Assembly (NCBI GenBank): GCA_015521325.1
Contig: WAOK01000001.1
Coordinates: forward strand, 9,782-73,781
Length of the DNA: 64,000 nucleotides
Direction of reading: 5' to 3'
Source: Desulfurococcales archaeon
Lineage (GTDB): Archaea; Thermoproteota; Thermoprotei_A; Sulfolobales; NBVN01
Shown: one piece after another, positions 28,340-50,064 of the stretch
Position numbering within the stretch: the first letter of the stretch is position 1
Layout: every line of letters begins with the position of its first letter
Notes under the pieces: model-generated
The model's database searches: none
What the model was told of the DNA's origin: nothing
The model's input: only the letters and a program-made list of their open reading frames with translations
Position numbers and translations under genes: made by a program

Positions 28340-28363
28340 CTGCCTATTTAGTTGTGGATTAAT

Positions 28364-28381
28364 AGAACCATTAATGGTTCT
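28364..28381. promoter_or_regulatory. perfect 18-bp palindrome AGAACCATTAATGGTTCT in the 48-bp clp1/ksgA divergent region
   Basis: Read directly. Flanked by a second ATTAAT at 28358-28363. Confidence 0.35.
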
Positions 28382-28387
28382 TACACG

Positions 28388-29185
28388 ATGGCTGATGACC
28401 CGTGTGGGGAGCTGAGGAGGCTGCTGCGACTCAGCAGGGGATTGAGGCTGAGGAAGCGGCTGGGTCAGCACATCATGAGGGAGTGCAGGATAGGAACGGA
28501 TTTTATGAGGGTAATTAGGGGACTCGGCCCGAGGGCCGTGGTCGAGGTCGGGGCGGGTCCTGGGGCACTCACACTATTTCTTGTGAGATCCTGTGGGAGG
28601 GTCTTGTCAATAGAGATAGACAGTTCCTTCGTTCCTTACCTAGCGCCGTTAGTCGAGAAGTACTTACTAGAGGTGGTGTTGGGAGACGCCATCGATTTAG
28701 TCCCGTCGATTCGGGGTGTGGACGTGCTTGCTTCCAACACCCCATACAACATCTCCTCGCAGCTCCTTGTAGCGTTCGTGAAGAACCCCTCCCTAAGAGC
28801 TGCCGTGATGACTCTGCAGAAGGACTTGGTTGACAGGCTGCTCGCCCCTCCAGGCTCAAAGCGCTACGGGAGGATCGCTGCTTTCGTAAGGAGTTTCGCC
28901 TTCATCGAGAGGGTGGCTGACTACCCGCCCAGTTACTTCATACCCGAGCCCGAGGTCTGGTCCAGCCTTGTGGTTCTGAAGAAGGTTGTTGATTGGGGTG
29001 AGGGATGGGCGCGCTATGAGGACATGCTCAGGTGTCTCTTCAATCAGAGAAGGAGGATGCTGAGGACTGTGGCGAGGAGGTGTGGATTGATTGTGCCGAC
29101 CGATTTGCTGAATAAAAGGGTTTATGAGCTCGGGCCCGAGGAGTTCGTGAGGATCTACAGGCTTAATTACTCAGGCGGCCCGTAA
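28388..29185 (+). CDS. rsmA: 16S rRNA (adenine-N6,N6)-dimethyltransferase KsgA/Dim1
   Basis: LGQHIM, VVEVGAGPGALT (SAM site), SNTPYNISSQLL motifs. Confidence 0.85.
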   Translation: MADDPCGELRRLLRLSRGLRLRKRLGQHIMRECRIGTDFMRVIRGLGPRAVVEVGAGPGALTLFLVRSCGRVLSIEIDSSFVPYLAPLVEKYLLEVVLGDAIDLVPSIRGVDVLASNTPYNISSQLLVAFVKNPSLRAAVMTLQKDLVDRLLAPPGSKRYGRIAAFVRSFAFIERVADYPPSYFIPEPEVWSSLVVLKKVVDWGEGWARYEDMLRCLFNQRRRMLRTVARRCGLIVPTDLLNKRVYELGPEEFVRIYRLNYSGGP

Positions 29186-29433
29186 CTCCTCTGCCTTCTT
29201 ATCATCTCCTTAAGTTCCTCTATCCGCTTGCTCACGCTCTCCAGTTCCTCCTTAAGCTCCTCCAGCTCTGCCTCCAGCTCCTTCCTGTACTCCTCCAACA
29301 TCCTCAGCTCATCCTCTGGGCTATACCCCCACGGCGGAGGGTACTGAGGCGGCGGGTACCATCCCCAGTAATACGGCGGCGGATATGGGTAGAAAACGCC
29401 CCTCCTTCTCCACCTATACCCCCACCAACTCAT
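29167..29433 (-). CDS. DUF5320-like small protein: W/Y/P/R-rich N-terminus plus E/K/L coiled-coil C-terminus
   Basis: 88 aa from Met24 of ORF 29167..29502: MSWWGYRWRRRGVFYPYPPPYYWGWYPPPQYPPPWGYSPEDELRMLEEYRKELEAELEELKEELESVSKRIEELKEMI. The ATG lies 2 nt after the upstream stop. Confidence 0.6.
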   Translation of the reverse strand: MSWWGYRWRRRGVFYPYPPPYYWGWYPPPQYPPPWGYSPEDELRMLEEYRKELEAELEELKEELESVSKRIEELKEMIRRQRSYGPPE

Positions 29434-29435
29434 GG

Positions 29436-29714
29436 TCACCACCCGTACCATGGCGTGGGGTACCAGGTACCTGAGTAGTAGGGGGCGTAGTAGCTGTACC
29501 ACCTACCCCAGTACGTCGGCCACCAGTACCTGCCCCACACTACCCATCCAGGGGCACCAAAGACCCTCCAGCACGCTCCGCGCCCTCCAAAGTACCAGCC
29601 AGGCCTCTCCCACGGCGGTAGGAACGACCAGGGCCCGTTCCCTGGCCACGGACCTCTCCATCCTCTTCTCCATCCCCAGCCGAGTCCCCACCACGGCGGC
29701 ATGGGTATCCCCAA
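29436..29714 (-). CDS. extreme Trp-rich small protein (19 W of 92 aa; W/G/R/P/Y low complexity)
   Basis: MGIPMPPWWGLGWGWRRGWRGPWPGNGPW...TWYPTPWYGW. Composition continues into the next ORF. The competing same-strand frame 29503..29724 is not excluded. Confidence 0.5.
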   Translation of the reverse strand: MGIPMPPWWGLGWGWRRGWRGPWPGNGPWSFLPPWERPGWYFGGRGACWRVFGAPGWVVWGRYWWPTYWGRWYSYYAPYYSGTWYPTPWYGW

Positions 29715-29750
29715 TTATGTGCAATAGCTCAAAAGCTAATAAACAGTTAC

Positions 29751-30092
29751 TCAGCTCTCCACAGAGCCTGTGACGTATATGGGCCTTCTGTTAACTATGG
29801 CGTCAACGAGTTTACGCCTCCCACTCTCAAGAAGCCTCCAGAGAGTCCCTCTCGAGATACGCATTAGCTCAGCTGCCTCGCCCTGCCGCTTCCCCTCCAG
29901 GTAAACCAGCCTGAGGGCCTCGACCTCGTCCGGGGTTAAGACTACGGAGTCCGGGGGTACCTCTCCATCTTCATCGAGAGGAAACGGCATGAACACCGTT
30001 GGTGTGTGAGACCATGATAGCCAGCGGGGCTTCGGTGGCCTGCCCTTACCTCTCCATCTTCGCCGCCAGGGCCTCCAATGCACCAGAGTCAC
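29751..30092 (-). CDS. DUF134 (UPF0251) family HTH protein with R/W-rich N-terminal tail
   Basis: GRPPKPRWLSWSHTPTVFMPFP...VVLTPDEVEALRLVYLEGKRQGEAAELMRISRGTLWRLLESGRRKLVDAIV matches the DUF134 pattern (RPRKPR..F.P...L..dE.EAlRL.d.egl.qeeAAe.MgvSR.T..r.l..AR.Kva.AL). Confidence 0.75.
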   Translation of the reverse strand: MTLVHWRPWRRRWRGKGRPPKPRWLSWSHTPTVFMPFPLDEDGEVPPDSVVLTPDEVEALRLVYLEGKRQGEAAELMRISRGTLWRLLESGRRKLVDAIVNRRPIYVTGSVES

Positions 30093-30727
30093 CTAAGAGC
30101 TAAGTTAATAGCAGCCCTAATGTCGCTATCCTTTACTTTCTCTGTACCGATGAGGGGCGGCGGACGCTCACTACTGCTCCTGAACTCCTCCGTAAGCCTA
30201 ACTTCGCACCCGAGTTCAAAGAGGACCTCCGATACCTCATACGCAACCTCCCTTAACTCGGGAGATGCCGGTACACCCACCCTGGCATGGCATGCAGTTC
30301 TCTCCGTACCTGTTAGGGCCCTCTCTATGGCCTGCCGAAACTCACTAACCTTTCCCACCTTGCCATACCCAACGATGACGTTCCCCCGTATGATAACGTA
30401 CGCTATCCTGGCCCCGACGTCAACACCTATTAGCACGCTCTTCCCCTCAACGCCGAGAACCTTCCGTATAAGATTCTCAATATCTTTCGCATCTTCTACA
30501 ACAATTGCGTTCTCCGCCCTCGGTTCGCCGAACACTTGAAGGAACTCCTTATCAACGATGGCGATGTCTCTCAGCGCCTCCGGCGAGTCAGGCACCTCGA
30601 AGCTGACGCCGGAGTTCCTCAGCACTTCGATTACACGTCGAAATACTCGGGGGTTGAGCACGAATACCTGGATATGCTTTCTCTTGCTGCTCACGTCGCA
30701 GACCAGAATAATCCGTGTGATGAGCAT
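30089..30727 (-). CDS. RNase H-fold (YqgF/RuvX/RuvC-like) putative nuclease with ~95-aa N-terminal domain
   Basis: SVLIGVDVGARIAYVII...RVGVPASPELREVAYEVSEVLFELGCEVRLTEEFRSS...DSDIRAAINLALR parallels YqgF (GlDvG.kriGvA...vvGlP....a..f...L...v...DErlTT) and the DUF460 core at 48025..50064. Confidence 0.45.
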   Translation of the reverse strand: MLITRIILVCDVSSKRKHIQVFVLNPRVFRRVIEVLRNSGVSFEVPDSPEALRDIAIVDKEFLQVFGEPRAENAIVVEDAKDIENLIRKVLGVEGKSVLIGVDVGARIAYVIIRGNVIVGYGKVGKVSEFRQAIERALTGTERTACHARVGVPASPELREVAYEVSEVLFELGCEVRLTEEFRSSSERPPPLIGTEKVKDSDIRAAINLALR

Positions 30728-30744
30728 ATTATTCGGCGGGGAGC

Positions 30745-31443
30745 TTGAGTGCCGTACACCGCCTCTTGGACACCGTCAATAAAGCCTGGTCAAAGGCCCC
30801 GATACTGCTGTTCGGGCCTCCAGCGGCTGGTAAAACGAATACGGCGCTGTGGCTGGCGGCGCAGTACCTAAGGGGTGGTGGACGCGTACACTACATCAGC
30901 ACAGAGGGAAGGCTTCCCGTTGAGGTAGTGGAGCGGTATGACCTACTGAGCTCAGACTTCCTTGTAGCTATCGCCGTGGATAGCCAGCACCTCCTTAGCC
31001 TGGTGGCCAGGGCTGTAGCCCGCGGTCCTGGGTCTCTCTTGGTTATTGATTCCGTTAATTCGTTCTACAGGGCAGAAGCTCATGAGGCGGTGGCAGGGCG
31101 CAGACTAACGACGCTCATGGCGCTCCTTGCTCACTCTGCCTCCAAGGGTGTGAGGTCCCTCGTTACGGCACAGATAATGGAAAGACCCGATCCCGTGGCG
31201 GTTAGAGAGTACGAGGTCAGTGGTTACTGGGGAATAAGGCCCTTCATCTCTGCAGAGATCGAGATACGGCGGCTGCCTTCGGGCGAGAGAGTTCTTTTAT
31301 TTTCGGCGCGCCCCTCACAAATCGATCAGTGCTATAAGGCGGTGATGAGTTATGGAGGCATCGCCATTGATTACTGCGGTAGTGAAGACGACGAGGGCCT
31401 ACGCACTGGCGATGGTGGCGAACGCGGCGCCAGTGATGGTTAA
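30745..31443 (+). CDS. RecA-superfamily ATPase, RadA paralog (RadB/aRadC-like)
   Basis: Walker A ILLFGPPAAGKTNTAL, ISTEG, Walker B LLVIDSVNSFYRAE. TTG start lies 17 nt from the divergent 30727 start. Confidence 0.6.
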   Translation: MSAVHRLLDTVNKAWSKAPILLFGPPAAGKTNTALWLAAQYLRGGGRVHYISTEGRLPVEVVERYDLLSSDFLVAIAVDSQHLLSLVARAVARGPGSLLVIDSVNSFYRAEAHEAVAGRRLTTLMALLAHSASKGVRSLVTAQIMERPDPVAVREYEVSGYWGIRPFISAEIEIRRLPSGERVLLFSARPSQIDQCYKAVMSYGGIAIDYCGSEDDEGLRTGDGGERGASDG

Positions 31444-47150: not shown

Positions 47151-48077
47151 ATGGTGGTAGAGGAGCTGGCCCTGTTCGGTTCAGCACTCCTGTTTGCTGT
47201 GATGACCGTATCCGTAGCGAACAATATGGGCGTGATTATCGGCCCAGGCTCGAGCACGAGGATACTCAGGCCGAACACCTTGAGACTGTTCTCAATAATC
47301 GGGCTGGCACTAGGCTATGTCGTTGAAGGCTGGAAGGTTAGGGCGGACGTAGGCCTTAGTGTAGATGGTGAGATCGCTGCCTCGCTCACCGTGCTCATCT
47401 TCCTCGGCGTCCTCACACTCTTCGGCAGAGCGACATCCATAACCCAGCTAATGTTCGCATTCGTTGTCGGGGTCTCGGTGGCCCGCGGAGACCAGTCGTC
47501 GCTCGGTTTCGTCACTGAAGTTCTGACCTATTGGTTAGTCGCTATTGTACTATCCGTTCTTGCCTCCATGCTCATTACCTCGTTTATGAAGGGAAAGGGC
47601 CCGTTCTCTGTTCTTGGCTCAATAACTGTATTAAAGGGTGTCACTCTCATAATGATATTCCTAACAGCGTACGTTCTGGGGGCTAACACCCTGGGCTTCG
47701 TCGCCTCATTCGTACCCTCTCCTGACGGACCCGCCTCCCTGCTAGCGGCGCTGTCAGGGATAGTTGTGGGGGCATACATTACCGACGTTAGGGGAAGCGT
47801 GTACTCCACAGGGCTCGTCGGGTTAAGGTACGTGAGTAGCTTGACACCCTATGTTAGCGCTATGCTGCTTACTGAGGTAGGTACCCAGTTGGGTGTGCCG
47901 TTACCCCTCTCTATGAGCGTATTCTTCGGTCTCATAGGGTCAGCCCTTGCTATGAGGCTCCGCATCATACCTTACAGAAAGGTAATTCATTACTTCGTGA
48001 CGGCGTGGCTAGCACCATTCCTGTTCATGGTGTTTGTTTCGTGGCTTCTTTATCGTCTCCTGCCTCTTCAGCTATGA
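47151..48077 (+). CDS. inorganic phosphate transporter, PiT family (divergent)
   Basis: 308 aa polytopic. VSVANNMGVIIGPGSSTRIL...FSIIGLALGYVVEGWKV parallels the PiT motif GaNDvAN.iG..vgs..l. Partnered with DUF47. Confidence 0.55.
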   Translation: MVVEELALFGSALLFAVMTVSVANNMGVIIGPGSSTRILRPNTLRLFSIIGLALGYVVEGWKVRADVGLSVDGEIAASLTVLIFLGVLTLFGRATSITQLMFAFVVGVSVARGDQSSLGFVTEVLTYWLVAIVLSVLASMLITSFMKGKGPFSVLGSITVLKGVTLIMIFLTAYVLGANTLGFVASFVPSPDGPASLLAALSGIVVGAYITDVRGSVYSTGLVGLRYVSSLTPYVSAMLLTEVGTQLGVPLPLSMSVFFGLIGSALAMRLRIIPYRKVIHYFVTAWLAPFLFMVFVSWLLYRLLPLQL

Positions 48078-50064
48078 CCTCCCTGGATGACCTGTATGCG
48101 TTGATCAAGGCCTCGAGCTTCTCAACAGTTAGCTCCTTCTTTCTTTTCTCCTCAAGCAGTAGCTTATTCAGAGCGGCCCGGGCACTGCTGACGGCAAGCA
48201 TAACACTGCTCGGTAACACCGAGACCCATCCCACGCTGATCAACGGCTCGTCATACACGGTCGCCACAGGCAACCTATACTTCCTCATCAGTTTCGCATC
48301 CCCTCCCCTCCTGACGAGCATGACAGCGGATCTCCTGGAGAGGTAGTCAGCCACACGCGGGGAGGGCTCGTCCACGAGGACGTACTCGCCCTCACGGACC
48401 CTGCCAAGCACCTTCTCGCTCTTTTTCAGGTCATCGAGATCCTTGACATGTCGCACCAGGAGGGAGTACCCGCGGAATATGCTGTATATTACCGGCTCAA
48501 AGGACTCCACATTGCTTCGGAGGGAATCAACCTCCCGCCTCAACTCGTCAACGTATCTCGTCAAGGACTCAACCCTGCTCTGGAGCTCGCGTATCTTCCT
48601 GTCCCGAAGGATGTGGATGCGCGACTCAGATCTTTGTTCCTCCAGCCTCCTCTCTAGCTCCCGCACCCTCGCCTCCATGTTCTCGAGTTGTTTCCTCAGT
48701 TTATCATTCTCTGCCTGCAGCACCTCGTTCTCCCTTATTAATTCATTAATTCTCTCAGTCAGCTCACTCTCACGGCGCTCCTTGACGCTGGCGCTGTGTC
48801 CTCCGGACGTGAGTTTTACGTTGCCTAAGTAGTCGTTTATAGCTGTCTCGACTATCTCAACGAGTGGCACGTCCTTGACGACGAGGTGAGCGTACCTGTG
48901 GATGTTTGGTGAGAGGAGGCCCATCCTCTCTAGCTCTCTCCTCAGCTTCTCGAGCTTGGACGCTATAGATCTGTAGGCGAGCACTGCGGCAGCGAGAGCA
49001 TCCCTCTCGTGTGTGGTTCTCACGTTTATGTTCCTCGGCGCAGCGAATTCCCTCACTATCTCCTCCTTCTCGGAGGTGCTCAGTGTGCGGGGCGGGTAAT
49101 AGAGTTGGGCACCTAGCATTGCAGCGACTTTCTTGACCATCTCGGGCGGCGGGTTCGTGTCCGCCGACACGATGAGGGGGACACCGGCTGATGAGACGAC
49201 CGAGACTATGTCTCCCTTGCCGAACTCTTTCGCTGAGTGGAGTGCTACGAGCTTGCCCTCGACGTCAAGTATTGCCAGACCGCTCTCTATTCCTGGGTCT
49301 ATCCCGATTATCAGGTATCTCTTTCTCTCGCCCTCGGTGACCGTGGCGATCTTTTTGATTGTTGCTGGTTTAATGATTACTCTCACGTTCCTGCTCCTGA
49401 TGTTGCTGATCACTCCCTTGAGATCGTCTCTTGAGGCGTACACTATGAATACGGCCCTCTCTATCCCGCCAACGCTTCGCCTCACATAGAGTTCGTAGGT
49501 CAGGCCCATGGAATCGAGCTTTTCTCGGATCCTCTTCATCATCCTGGCGACAGCCGCCCTCATCCTCCTCTGGAACTTCTCCGATCTTGAGCCGCCAGCG
49601 TACCCTCCTCTGCCCTTCGTGACTATGATGCGGACCCTCCGCTCGATGACATCCAGCCTCTTTCCTATGCCCCTGGCTGCCAATAGGGCGTTGATTATGG
49701 CGGTCTTCTCCGCGGAAGGGTGGCCCTTACCTATGCTCAGGCCCGCTAACCTTGCTGCCTCCCTCAGGCTCATGTGTCCTTTCTCCGTGAGGGTCACCTG
49801 AACTATTCTTGTGTCGGGTGGCATCAGCCCGATAACTCGATCCAGGGCCTCCGAGGTTCCTCCTAGTTCATATATGTTGTCCACCGCCAAAACGGATGGT
49901 CTGTTCTCCCACAACGTCCTTATGATTCTTCCTATGCCCCCCTCCTCAATCCTCTCGACCTTCCCATCCCTGACTACAGCTATTGCATACCTGAAGTCGG
50001 CTAGCCTTGAACCAACCCTGACGACGTCGATCCCCACGTAAGTGGGGCTCTCCTCAGATCTCAT
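48025..50064 (-). CDS. DUF460-type archaeal protein (RNase H-fold modules plus long coiled coil)
   Basis: YVGIDVV... and YLIIGIDPGIESGLAILDVEGK...THERDALAAAVLAYR RNase H/RuvC-like modules, followed by ~100 aa of heptad-rich sequence. Confidence 0.6.
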   Translation of the reverse strand: MRSEESPTYVGIDVVRVGSRLADFRYAIAVVRDGKVERIEEGGIGRIIRTLWENRPSVLAVDNIYELGGTSEALDRVIGLMPPDTRIVQVTLTEKGHMSLREAARLAGLSIGKGHPSAEKTAIINALLAARGIGKRLDVIERRVRIIVTKGRGGYAGGSRSEKFQRRMRAAVARMMKRIREKLDSMGLTYELYVRRSVGGIERAVFIVYASRDDLKGVISNIRSRNVRVIIKPATIKKIATVTEGERKRYLIIGIDPGIESGLAILDVEGKLVALHSAKEFGKGDIVSVVSSAGVPLIVSADTNPPPEMVKKVAAMLGAQLYYPPRTLSTSEKEEIVREFAAPRNINVRTTHERDALAAAVLAYRSIASKLEKLRRELERMGLLSPNIHRYAHLVVKDVPLVEIVETAINDYLGNVKLTSGGHSASVKERRESELTERINELIRENEVLQAENDKLRKQLENMEARVRELERRLEEQRSESRIHILRDRKIRELQSRVESLTRYVDELRREVDSLRSNVESFEPVIYSIFRGYSLLVRHVKDLDDLKKSEKVLGRVREGEYVLVDEPSPRVADYLSRRSAVMLVRRGGDAKLMRKYRLPVATVYDEPLISVGWVSVLPSSVMLAVSSARAALNKLLLEEKRKKELTVEKLEALINAYRSSREVIAEEAGDDKEATKQTP

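Follow-up and report, generated by a model that had tools for sequence, protein, structure and literature searches.

A split, tryptophan-rich branch of DUF5320-like proteins linked to DUF134 in archaea and its possible connection to metal-sulfide handling

The question of what a cell might do with a protein in which about one residue in five is Trp, the rarest amino acid and the costliest to make, is raised by a locus in a 64,000-nt stretch of DNA from a Desulfurococcales archaeon (assembly GCA_015521325.1, contig WAOK01000001.1), which we call the window and cite in its own numbering. Four tightly packed minus-strand open reading frames (ORFs), g1 to g4, span positions 29167 to 30727 of the window (Table 1). 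The first codes for a protein with a predicted RNase H-like fold, the second for a DUF134 protein, the third for the Trp-saturated protein, and the fourth for a small protein with a similar opening and a coiled coil at its end. An earlier reading of the sequence by a model (the original prediction) had listed these ORFs and their junctions, all of which stand as it described them. To our knowledge, DUF134 and DUF5320, the family to which g4 had been likened, are catalogued families, widely distributed among anaerobes, to which no function has been assigned. We found that g2, g3, and g4 belong to a unit that is widespread in archaea, in which g3 and g4 together correspond to one DUF5320-like protein, and that relatives of this unit lie beside, or are fused to, genes of the NifX/IssA/orange-protein type. 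These associations point, tentatively, to a role in handling metal-sulfide species, which we weigh below against alternative roles.

Evidence for translation of the Trp-rich frame

Counted from the upstream TTG codon, g3 comprises 19 Trp, 18 Gly, 14 Pro, 10 Tyr, and 8 Arg residues in 92 amino acids (aa), i.e., 20.7% Trp, and all 19 Trp residues are kept in the 88 aa that begin at the ATG. The g4 product packs 6 Trp, 13 Pro, and 10 Tyr into its first 38 residues, the remainder being E/K/L rich. This composition count agrees with the original prediction, which had given 19 Trp residues for g3 and a 6-Trp opening followed by an E/K/L-rich end for g4. Against a window background of 1.24 Trp residues on average per 90-aa stretch (all six frames), the g3 locus is the sole stretch with at least 10 Trp residues per 90 aa, and the next most Trp-rich ORF reaches 5.4%; the enrichment at g3 is not a product of chance.

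The closest public locus (L009), a contig of a Desulfurococcales metagenome-assembled genome (MAG), matches the window in the identity and order of the four genes and has a g3 protein 91% identical to that of the window. Comparison with this locus reveals substitutions at the first, second, and third codon positions in the proportions 3/3/13 in g3, 2/2/11 in g4, 4/4/28 in g2, and 24/18/44 in g1, and the sole indel within g3 is 3 nt long and in frame. If the alternative frame at 29503 to 29724 were the coding one, the variable sites would instead fall on first codon positions. Further, the two other same-strand frames of g3 are interrupted by stops in 37 and 53, respectively, of 55 split-type relatives (see below). 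The third-position bias, the in-frame indel, the stops in the alternative frames, and conservation beyond close relatives together argue, on comparative grounds, that the Trp-rich frame is the translated frame and that g3 and g4 are real genes. The original prediction had proposed comparison with related genomes as the way to decide between this frame and an alternative tiling (29503 to 29724 plus 29167 to 29502). The outcome favors the Trp-rich frame, and the tiling was rejected on account of the first-position substitutions that it would entail and the stops that interrupt it in most relatives.

We also rejected a programmed frameshift or read-through fusion of g3 and g4, because the gaps (2 nt in the window, 13 nt in L004, and 43 nt in L001) and the frames between the two halves differ among loci. 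P0001, a protein near-identical to g3, ends in WWP followed by the stop. Automated annotation of the pair is inconsistent: the public gene calls P0028 (111 aa) and P0029 (118 aa) extend g4 to a GTG at 29502 and overlap by ~67 nt with g3, which is itself called as P0001. The g4-like proteins found elsewhere (L001 and L004) begin at a Met directly ahead of the W/Y-rich head.

g3 and g4 as two halves of a DUF5320-like protein

A database search with g3 retrieved 18 homologous proteins, all of which share a core of the form GPWPGxGPxxxLPPWxRPGW..GxGxC. In the resulting alignment of 19 sequences (A1), 18 core columns are invariant (G17, P18, W19, P20, G21, G23, P24, L28, P29, P30, W31, R33, P34, G35, W36, G40, G42, and C44), all of them present in g3, and the same set of columns is likewise invariant in 26 single-chain relatives. 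In g3, the core lies between a cationic R/G/W head and a W/Y/P tail, and the protein as a whole has a net charge of +7. No Pfam family was retrieved with it even at an E value of 1, nor was there any NCBIfam match, and the AlphaFold2 model, with a mean predicted local distance difference test (pLDDT) score of 47, has no confident fold, suggesting a largely unstructured protein.

Most of the homologs of g3 are single chains of 74 to 156 aa, in which an aromatic/Pro linker connects the core to an E/K/L-rich coiled coil that opens with (E/D)(E/D)ELxxLExYKxxLE, as does that of g4. The g4 protein itself consists of a W/Y/P/R-rich head (residues 1 to 38; net charge, +4) and the coil, whose signature, EDELxxLExYKxxLE, recurs in P0004 to P0018, L001, and L004, as well as in fusions to NifX domains discussed below (P0153, L079, L042, and L018). 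A further set of homologs (P0001, P0002, P0003, and P0015) end, like g3, after the W/Y/P tail, and the next gene in their contigs is g4-like, i.e., it codes for a W/Y/P head and a coil. As the homologs devoid of a coil have a g4-like gene next to them and the single chains combine both parts, the g3-g4 pair represents one DUF5320-like protein divided between two genes.

The two halves are tied to DUF5320 by different routes. The match of g4 to the family profile (PF17253) is marginal, at 27.3 bits versus a cutoff of 27, and is confined to profile positions 37 to 98, i.e., the linker and the coil. By comparison, g3 is connected to DUF5320 only through the single-chain homologs that match this profile, with scores of 18 to 32 bits and, in some cases, alignment to positions 1 to 99; two relatives cover positions 1 to 99 or 4 to 99, at just 21 to 23 bits. 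Comparison of the archaeal single-chain alignment (A5) with that of canonical DUF5320 (A4) by means of hhalign recovered the coil with a probability of 98% (E = 8.6e-14). The DUF5320 layout put forward in the original prediction accordingly holds for g4, whereas g3, rather than being an orphan, is the N-terminal half of a DUF5320 branch. Sequence searches against the PDB returned nothing for DUF134 and only prefoldin coiled-coil noise for the DUF5320 branch.

Canonical DUF5320 proteins take the form MPxGDxTGPxGxGPxTGRxAGYCxGY...GRGWGRGRG...Y/P-rich...coiled coil. They share with the archaeal branch a Gly/Pro/Arg-rich head with one conserved Cys, an aromatic/Pro linker, and a C-terminal coil of ~40 aa, and both groups adjoin DUF134 and NifX-domain genes. 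The archaeal branch differs in the strictly conserved head motif given above, which in g3 reads GPWPGNGP...GRGAC, with one Cys, where the canonical head sits. The N-terminal heads of the two groups are not aligned by hhalign, and for this reason we regard the archaeal branch as distinct. Moreover, most of its members are split in two genes, and the linker is expanded to Trp-saturated tails with up to 34% Trp.

The composition of g3 and g4 had also been noted to recall membrane-active peptides, and they might accordingly be peptides like indolicidin or tritrpticin, rich in Trp, Arg, and Pro and either secreted or active on membranes. The resemblance is one of composition alone. A Kyte-Doolittle scan over 19 residues (maximum, 0.47 for g3 and -0.65 for g4) detected no hydrophobic segment or signal peptide in either protein, and no transporter, protease, or immunity gene is linked to them. 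In addition, the partners and fusions described below are cytoplasmic cofactor-handling and DNA-binding proteins, the genes lie in a housekeeping context, and their conservation across phyla is unlike what is seen in fast-evolving antimicrobial peptides. We hence consider this part of the original prediction extremely improbable.

Distribution of the family and linkage to DUF134

A scan with one genome per species revealed a relative of g3 at no fewer than 293 archaeal species loci, the best 80 of which were fetched. The hosts include Desulfurococcales, Pyrodictiaceae, Acidilobaceae, Thermofilales, Thermoproteales, Bathyarchaeia, Methanomethylicota, Culexmicrobium, Nitrososphaeria, Korarchaeota, Hadesarchaea, Methanocellales, Thermococcus, Archaeoglobi, and Asgard archaea. 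The family is small, with 135 matches at an E value of 1e-3 or better among 1.84 billion cluster representatives, a few of them artifacts. We dropped P0037, P0095, and P0138, which are long repeat proteins that match the g3 profile in several stretches and look like low-complexity or wrong-frame artifacts.

A census of gene neighborhoods within a radius of 6 kb was made over the 69 loci with the strict core motif. Here, the split form prevails (54 of 69, the other 15 being single-chain), and a g4-like gene lies alongside the g3-like gene in 35 of the 54 split loci. The proteins of the split form carry 11 to 34% Trp, e.g., 25 Trp residues in 73 aa in L074 (34%), 23 in 73 aa in L062 (31.5%), 24 in 79 aa in L051 (30%), and 27 in 106 aa in L017 (25%), and it is composition rather than sequence that is kept in the tails. 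In two Hermodarchaeota loci (L058, 63 to 380; L086, 4080 to 4565), the GPWPG core is followed by a zinc-ribbon-like CxxC...CxxC tail (FCVHCG...FCSQCGE) that replaces the coiled coil or the Trp-rich tail.

Tails of this kind raise the prospect that g3 and g4 constitute a self-assembling aromatic material, a condensate, gel, or fiber held together by Trp/Tyr/Pro stacking and the coil, which would require no specific ligand and might provide structure or protection at high temperature. Such a material would fit the extreme aromatic content (Tyr and Pro in addition to Trp), tails conserved in composition and not in sequence, the predicted disorder, and the multimerizing coil. However, a strictly invariant 29-residue core with a conserved Cys implies a specific interaction, and self-assembly leaves unexplained the tight linkage to DUF134 and to the NifX/Mrp genes considered below. 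This makes it, in our estimation, a quite unlikely explanation.

The most regular companion of the family is DUF134, a gene for which is found within 6 kb in 44 of the 69 loci and within 1 kb in 39 of them, on the same strand or divergently oriented. The gene order varies, e.g., g3-g4-DUF134 in L001 and DUF134-g3-g4 in L004, which argues that the linkage is functional rather than inherited synteny. The adjacency of DUF134 and DUF5320 genes is evident from databases and was pointed out in the original prediction, and these counts bear it out for the archaeal branch. On the evidence of these sequence comparisons, the conserved unit is well supported as one of three genes, g2-g3-g4, widespread in archaea. 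The four-gene operon proposed earlier thus survives with respect to its packing but not as a conserved unit of four, since g1 occurs only in L009, L010, and L011. In a Pyrodictiaceae MAG (L004, 4034 to 7844) and two metagenome contigs (L005, 6339 to 10345; L006, 3875 to 7881), DUF134 and DUF5320-like genes lie within ~1 to 2 kb upstream of reverse gyrase, and a DUF364/DUF4213-type gene is present nearby in L004 and L087.

Association with NifX/IssA-type and MinD/Mrp genes

Two further types of genes recur in the census. A gene coding for a NifX/IssA-type domain (PF02579) lies within 6 kb of the g3-family gene in 29 of the 69 loci, and one coding for a MinD/Mrp ATPase with a deviant Walker A motif does so in 28; the iterated Mrp profile also caught ferredoxin domains in the window, which were discarded by requiring this motif. 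The full set is seen in L008, with DUF5320, NifX-domain, DUF134, NifX-domain, and Mrp genes. The association extends to domain fusions, which occur in both orders: PF02579 follows a g4-like head and coil in P0153, L079, and L042 and comes ahead of an RGG linker and a DUF5320 coil in L018, L067, and L008. Pfam detects both PF02579 and PF17253 in P0153, L079, L042, and L018 and PF02579 only in L008. A reverse scan initiated with a Thermococcus NifX-like query recovered 48 DUF5320/g3-family ORFs in 80 metagenome loci with 1.5-kb flanks.

In Thermococcales, the genes form a string of an IssA-like gene, two g3-like genes, and another NifX gene whose product has an RGG tail, and the N terminus of the IssA-like protein resembles the sequence encoded by a published IssA primer (MKIAIP..NGGG). 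This string is exemplified by a Thermococcales metagenome contig (L098, 1486 to 3115) and is also seen in L087 and L089 to L101. The IssA-like protein of the string has a long, Pro-rich, Cys-containing tail, the last NifX protein has a GRGRGMGGGRG tail, and the end of the IssA-like gene and the first g3-like gene share sequence in different frames.

IssA of Pyrococcus furiosus (SipA, PF2025), which stores iron-sulfur (thioferrate) material, combines a PF02579-type domain with a disordered tail proposed to bind anionic thioferrate electrostatically; the tail is Pro rich and then cationic, aromatic, and Gly rich, with conserved W, G, and R, and holds the only Cys of the protein (PMC5524996). It is reminiscent of g3 and g4 in its chemistry, predicted disorder, and single Cys. 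The likeness extends to genomic context: in Thermococcales, the IssA-like gene is immediately followed by g3-like genes, and other archaea have fusions of DUF5320-type segments to this same domain (IPR003731/PF02579). Unlike IssA, g3 and g4 lack a NifX-type globular domain, and none is encoded in the window. The idea that SipB is a g3-like protein found no support, the Thermococcus onnurineus SipB being annotated as an ATPase C terminus.

A second precedent is the orange-protein (ORP) complex of Desulfovibrio, in which a NifX-type protein that binds a Mo-Cu-S cluster noncovalently occurs together with MinD/Mrp-type ATPases (PMC6345978). In D. alaskensis G20, expression of the orp region Dde_3197 to Dde_3199 changes together with that of feoA and flavodoxin across conditions (PMC10533852), which hints that ORP-type clusters respond to iron status. 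As in the ORP clusters (Desulfovibrio Orp3/4/5/8/9; PMC6345978, PMC8359166), NifX-type and MinD/Mrp genes are united in relatives of our locus, together with DUF134 and DUF5320 (L008), whereas the window has the DUF134 and DUF5320 part alone. It also has no sigma-54 regulator, as the host is an archaeon. Hence, the combination of genes, which the original prediction could not map to a described system, can be related to NifX/IssA/orange-protein genes with MinD/Mrp ATPases.

The reading that we favor, with a probability of roughly 0.4, is that g2-g3-g4 represent the minimal core of a NifX/IssA/orange-protein-type neighborhood for the handling of metal-sulfide species, be they iron-sulfur or others. 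In g3 and g4, the disordered, cationic-aromatic segments of Arg, Gly, Trp, Tyr, and Pro would bind or scaffold an inorganic polymer or cluster of anionic character, acting like the IssA tail but in trans. The coiled coil of g4 would multimerize the complex and dock it to partners bearing the same coil, and the single conserved Cys of the g3 core may help ligate the cargo. DUF134 would be the DNA-binding partner or regulator, and its N-terminal tail, which has the same composition as g3 and g4, may contact the same partner or ligand. In a bolder form of this proposal, which we deem unlikely, g3/g4-type proteins would be an undescribed class of disordered cationic-aromatic proteins that wrap, nucleate, or cap iron-sulfide or thiometallate polymers, with DUF134 coupling the loading of such stores to transcription.

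Several points weigh against a role in metal-sulfide handling. The functional assignment draws entirely on gene neighborhoods, domain fusions, and compositional analogy. Across its 64 kb, the window encodes no NifX-domain (PF02579/IPR003731) or MinD/Mrp protein, and the closest relatives (L009 to L016, L019 to L021, L024, L025, and L029) likewise have the trio alone, which implies that the trio can work in the absence of NifX/Mrp genes next to it. The alignment of the archaeal branch to canonical DUF5320 by hhalign runs through the coiled coil only and not the N-terminal cores. The tail of P. furiosus IssA is reported to have 11 Pro residues in 70, and this speaks against the presence of the g3 core there. 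Lastly, the most constant partner, DUF134, is a DNA-binding protein, which would suit a role on nucleic acids equally well.

The DUF134 protein and a possible role in transcription

The g2 protein matches DUF134 (PF02001) with an E value of 1.4e-17 (64.5 bits versus a cutoff of 27), its residues 16 to 109 covering profile positions 4 to 92 of 98, in accord with the family originally assigned to it. It also scores 28.0 bits against Sigma70_r4_2 (cutoff, 25.7), indicative of a region-4-like helix-turn-helix, and its basic RPxKxR arm is present as GRPPKPR, aligned with the same motif in relatives. In these features, namely, the full-length Pfam match, the helix-turn-helix, and the arm, g2 is like canonical DUF134/UPF0251 proteins. 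It differs from them in its N terminus: canonical copies begin directly with RPRKCRRV, whereas in g2 an additional R/W-rich extension, VTLVHWRPWRRRWRGK, precedes GRPPKPR. The W/R-rich segment itself is HWRPWRRRWRGK in the window versus PPWRWRWGRRG in relatives. Together with the arm, it is conserved as ..PPWRWRWGRRGRGRPPKxR in the DUF134 copies that are paired with split W-rich genes, the window having HWRPWRRRWRGKGRPPKPR, so that the R/W-rich tail pointed out in the original prediction proves to be both real and conserved. A near-identical extension, GPPWRWRWGRRGRGRPPK, is seen in L063 (5213 to 5569), L070 (3275 to 3625), and L004 (1178 to 1522). The extension mirrors the R/G/W head of the g3 family and is absent from the canonical copies in L018, L067, and L058.

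These properties bear on a serious rival to the metal-sulfide reading, which we judge to be possible though doubtful, namely, that the trio is a transcription or chromatin module. DUF134 would bind DNA via its region-4-like helix-turn-helix and GRPPKPR arm, the R/G/W segments of g3 and g4 would contact DNA, RNA, or the tail of DUF134, and g3/g4 would serve as an oligomerizing cofactor or antagonist in the manner of an anti-sigma factor or corepressor, the NifX/Mrp genes elsewhere being merely regulated targets. A role of this kind is compatible with the earlier suggestion that these are Arg/aromatic "sticker" sequences. Cationic, aromatic, disordered segments of the RGG type are typical nucleic acid binders, and the segments of g3 and g4 resemble them. 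Moreover, DUF134 is the most constant of the neighbors, being present where NifX/Mrp genes are absent, and its tail varies with its partner, with PPWRWRWGRRG beside split W-rich genes and RPRKCRRV elsewhere. In addition, when M. mazei proteins were scanned for motifs, one DUF134 protein and one DUF5320 protein were flagged for an RG-type quadruplex-binding motif (PMC7565180), but this is a pattern match only. The fusions, however, join DUF5320-type segments to a NifX-type cofactor-binding domain and not to DNA-binding domains, and a pure regulator is not expected to be fused, in both orders, to a domain of its target's product. In addition, AlphaFold2 predicts no DNA-binding fold for g3.

The RuvX/RuvC-fold protein g1

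AlphaFold2 modeling of g1 (mean pLDDT, 75; below 50 over the first 15 residues) suggests an N-terminal alpha/beta domain followed by a RuvX/RuvC-like RNase H-fold domain at approximately residues 98 to 211. In Foldseek searches, the top match of the model is RuvX (7ess_A; E = 3.3e-4), and further matches include the RuvC-like domain of IS621, a poxvirus resolvase, and RuvC (among them 8wt6, 6p7b, and 6s16). The invariant residues include a GxDxG motif (residues 101 to 105, with D103), E129, E180, E181, and D202. Thus, g1 is like RuvX/YqgF and RuvC in the predicted fold of its C-terminal domain, the GxDxG motif in the first strand, and the conserved acidic residues. It departs from RuvX/YqgF (PF03652) and RuvC in its additional N-terminal alpha/beta domain, its very narrow distribution, and the lack of a profile match, neither Pfam nor NCBIfam yielding a family at an E value of 1.

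The RuvX/RuvC type of fold attributed to g1 in the original prediction is hence supported by the model. Its proposed resemblance to the core of a DUF460 protein encoded elsewhere in the window (Table 1) is not backed by a significant sequence relationship, the BLASTP E value being 0.41 and the hhalign probability 1%. By eye, the DUF460 protein is rich in E, K, R, and L downstream of its domain. Several homologs of g1 start ~11 codons further in, and this, along with the low pLDDT of residues 1 to 15, suggests that the real start of g1 may be an internal GTG.

The presence of a nuclease-like fold raises the alternative that the four genes are a nuclease system in which g1 is the effector and g2 to g4 target or regulate it, for instance, in DNA repair or defense. 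The 4-nt overlap of g1 and g2 in both the window and L009, their adjacency in L010 and L011, and the predicted RNase H-like resolvase fold with its conserved acidic residues are consistent with such a system. On the other hand, g1 is absent from all other g3-family loci, its copies in L010 and L011 are 30% identical, only 9 close homologs are found in a database of 5.8 billion clusters, and it evolves faster than g2 to g4, as is evident from the substitutions by codon position given above. PADLOC produced no significant match, giving only coiled-coil noise (LmuB, E >= 1e-3) and one match with an E value of 0.009, and an anti-phage defense system was accordingly rejected. We therefore regard a four-gene nuclease system as very unlikely; g1 is an addition specific to this lineage, coupled translationally to g2 and lying outside the widely conserved module.

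Organization of the locus

The coordinates of the features are collected in Table 1. The stop codon of g1 and the start codon of g2 overlap in the sequence GTGA at 30089 to 30092. The gap between g2 and g3 amounts to 36 nt if g3 is taken to begin at TTG 29714 and to 48 nt with ATG 29702, which is the more likely start, given that homologs begin there. The TGA of g3 (29436 to 29438) is followed by "cc" and then by the ATG of g4 at 29433, a gap of 2 nt.

Table 1. Features of the g1-g4 locus and a DUF460 gene, in window coordinates
Feature	Position	Strand	Length or residues	Remarks
g1	30089-30727	minus	212 aa	
g2	29751-30092	minus	113 aa	GTG start
g2-g3 spacer	29703-29750	minus	48 nt	
g3	29436-29702 or up to 29714	minus	88 aa (ATG) or 92 aa (TTG)	
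Invariant g3 core	29568-29654	minus	residues 17-45	GPWPGNGPWSFLPPWERPGWYFGGRGACW; holds the only cysteine of g3
g4	29167-29433	minus	88 aa	ATG start
g4 coiled coil	29185-29319	minus	residues 39-83	PEDELRMLEEYRKELEAELEELKEELESVSKRIEELKEMIRRQ
DUF460 protein	48025-50064	minus	679 aa	DUF460 (PF04312) domain at residues 222-360, 141.5 bits

Between the window and L009, the g2-g3 spacer has 0 substitutions and a single 1-nt indel beside the g2 stop, whereas the flanking coding DNA differs at ~7% of sites. It contains a TATA-like TTTATTA (29737 to 29743) ~38 nt upstream of the g3 ATG, suggesting that g3-g4 may have a promoter of their own, and a GGGGAT element immediately ahead of the ATG. Judged by its sequence, the spacer may serve g3-g4 as an internal promoter or in ribosome binding.

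The neighboring genes are of the housekeeping type, coding for a Clp1-type kinase, the KsgA rRNA dimethylase, an AAA/RadB-like ATPase, CDP-archaeol synthase, Nop10, and aIF2-alpha. Of these, the KsgA gene is convergent with g4 and shares 19 nt with its 3' end (29167 to 29185), and the divergent AAA/RadB-like ORF is only 17 nt from the ATG of g1 (30727 to 30745). The KsgA ORF as listed (TTG 28352) and the 5' end of the Clp1-like gene have 120 nt in common (28352 to 28471), and for this reason the true KsgA start probably lies further downstream.

Implications

The searchable literature, in which DUF5320 is named in just two papers that do not deal with what it does, reports no function for this family and contains no description of the GPWPG-core branch, its division into two genes, its extreme Trp content, or the fusions to IssA/ORP-type domains. 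What is new here is an archaeal GPWPG...LPPWxRPGW...C branch that is usually encoded by two genes and has its linker expanded to as much as 34% Trp in 73 aa; the copy in the window is an ordinary member of this g3/g4 family. The conserved heavy use of Trp also deserves attention from protein chemists and from those who study disordered proteins. The links to NifX/IssA and MinD/Mrp genes turn the locus into a concrete question, i.e., whether these proteins bind thioferrate or Fe-S species or else nucleic acids, and this question bears on the storage and trafficking of iron and sulfide in anaerobic archaea. If the bolder form of the metal-sulfide reading is true, it would provide the first functions for DUF134 and DUF5320 and would point to a general archaeal means of handling mineral-like Fe-S species.

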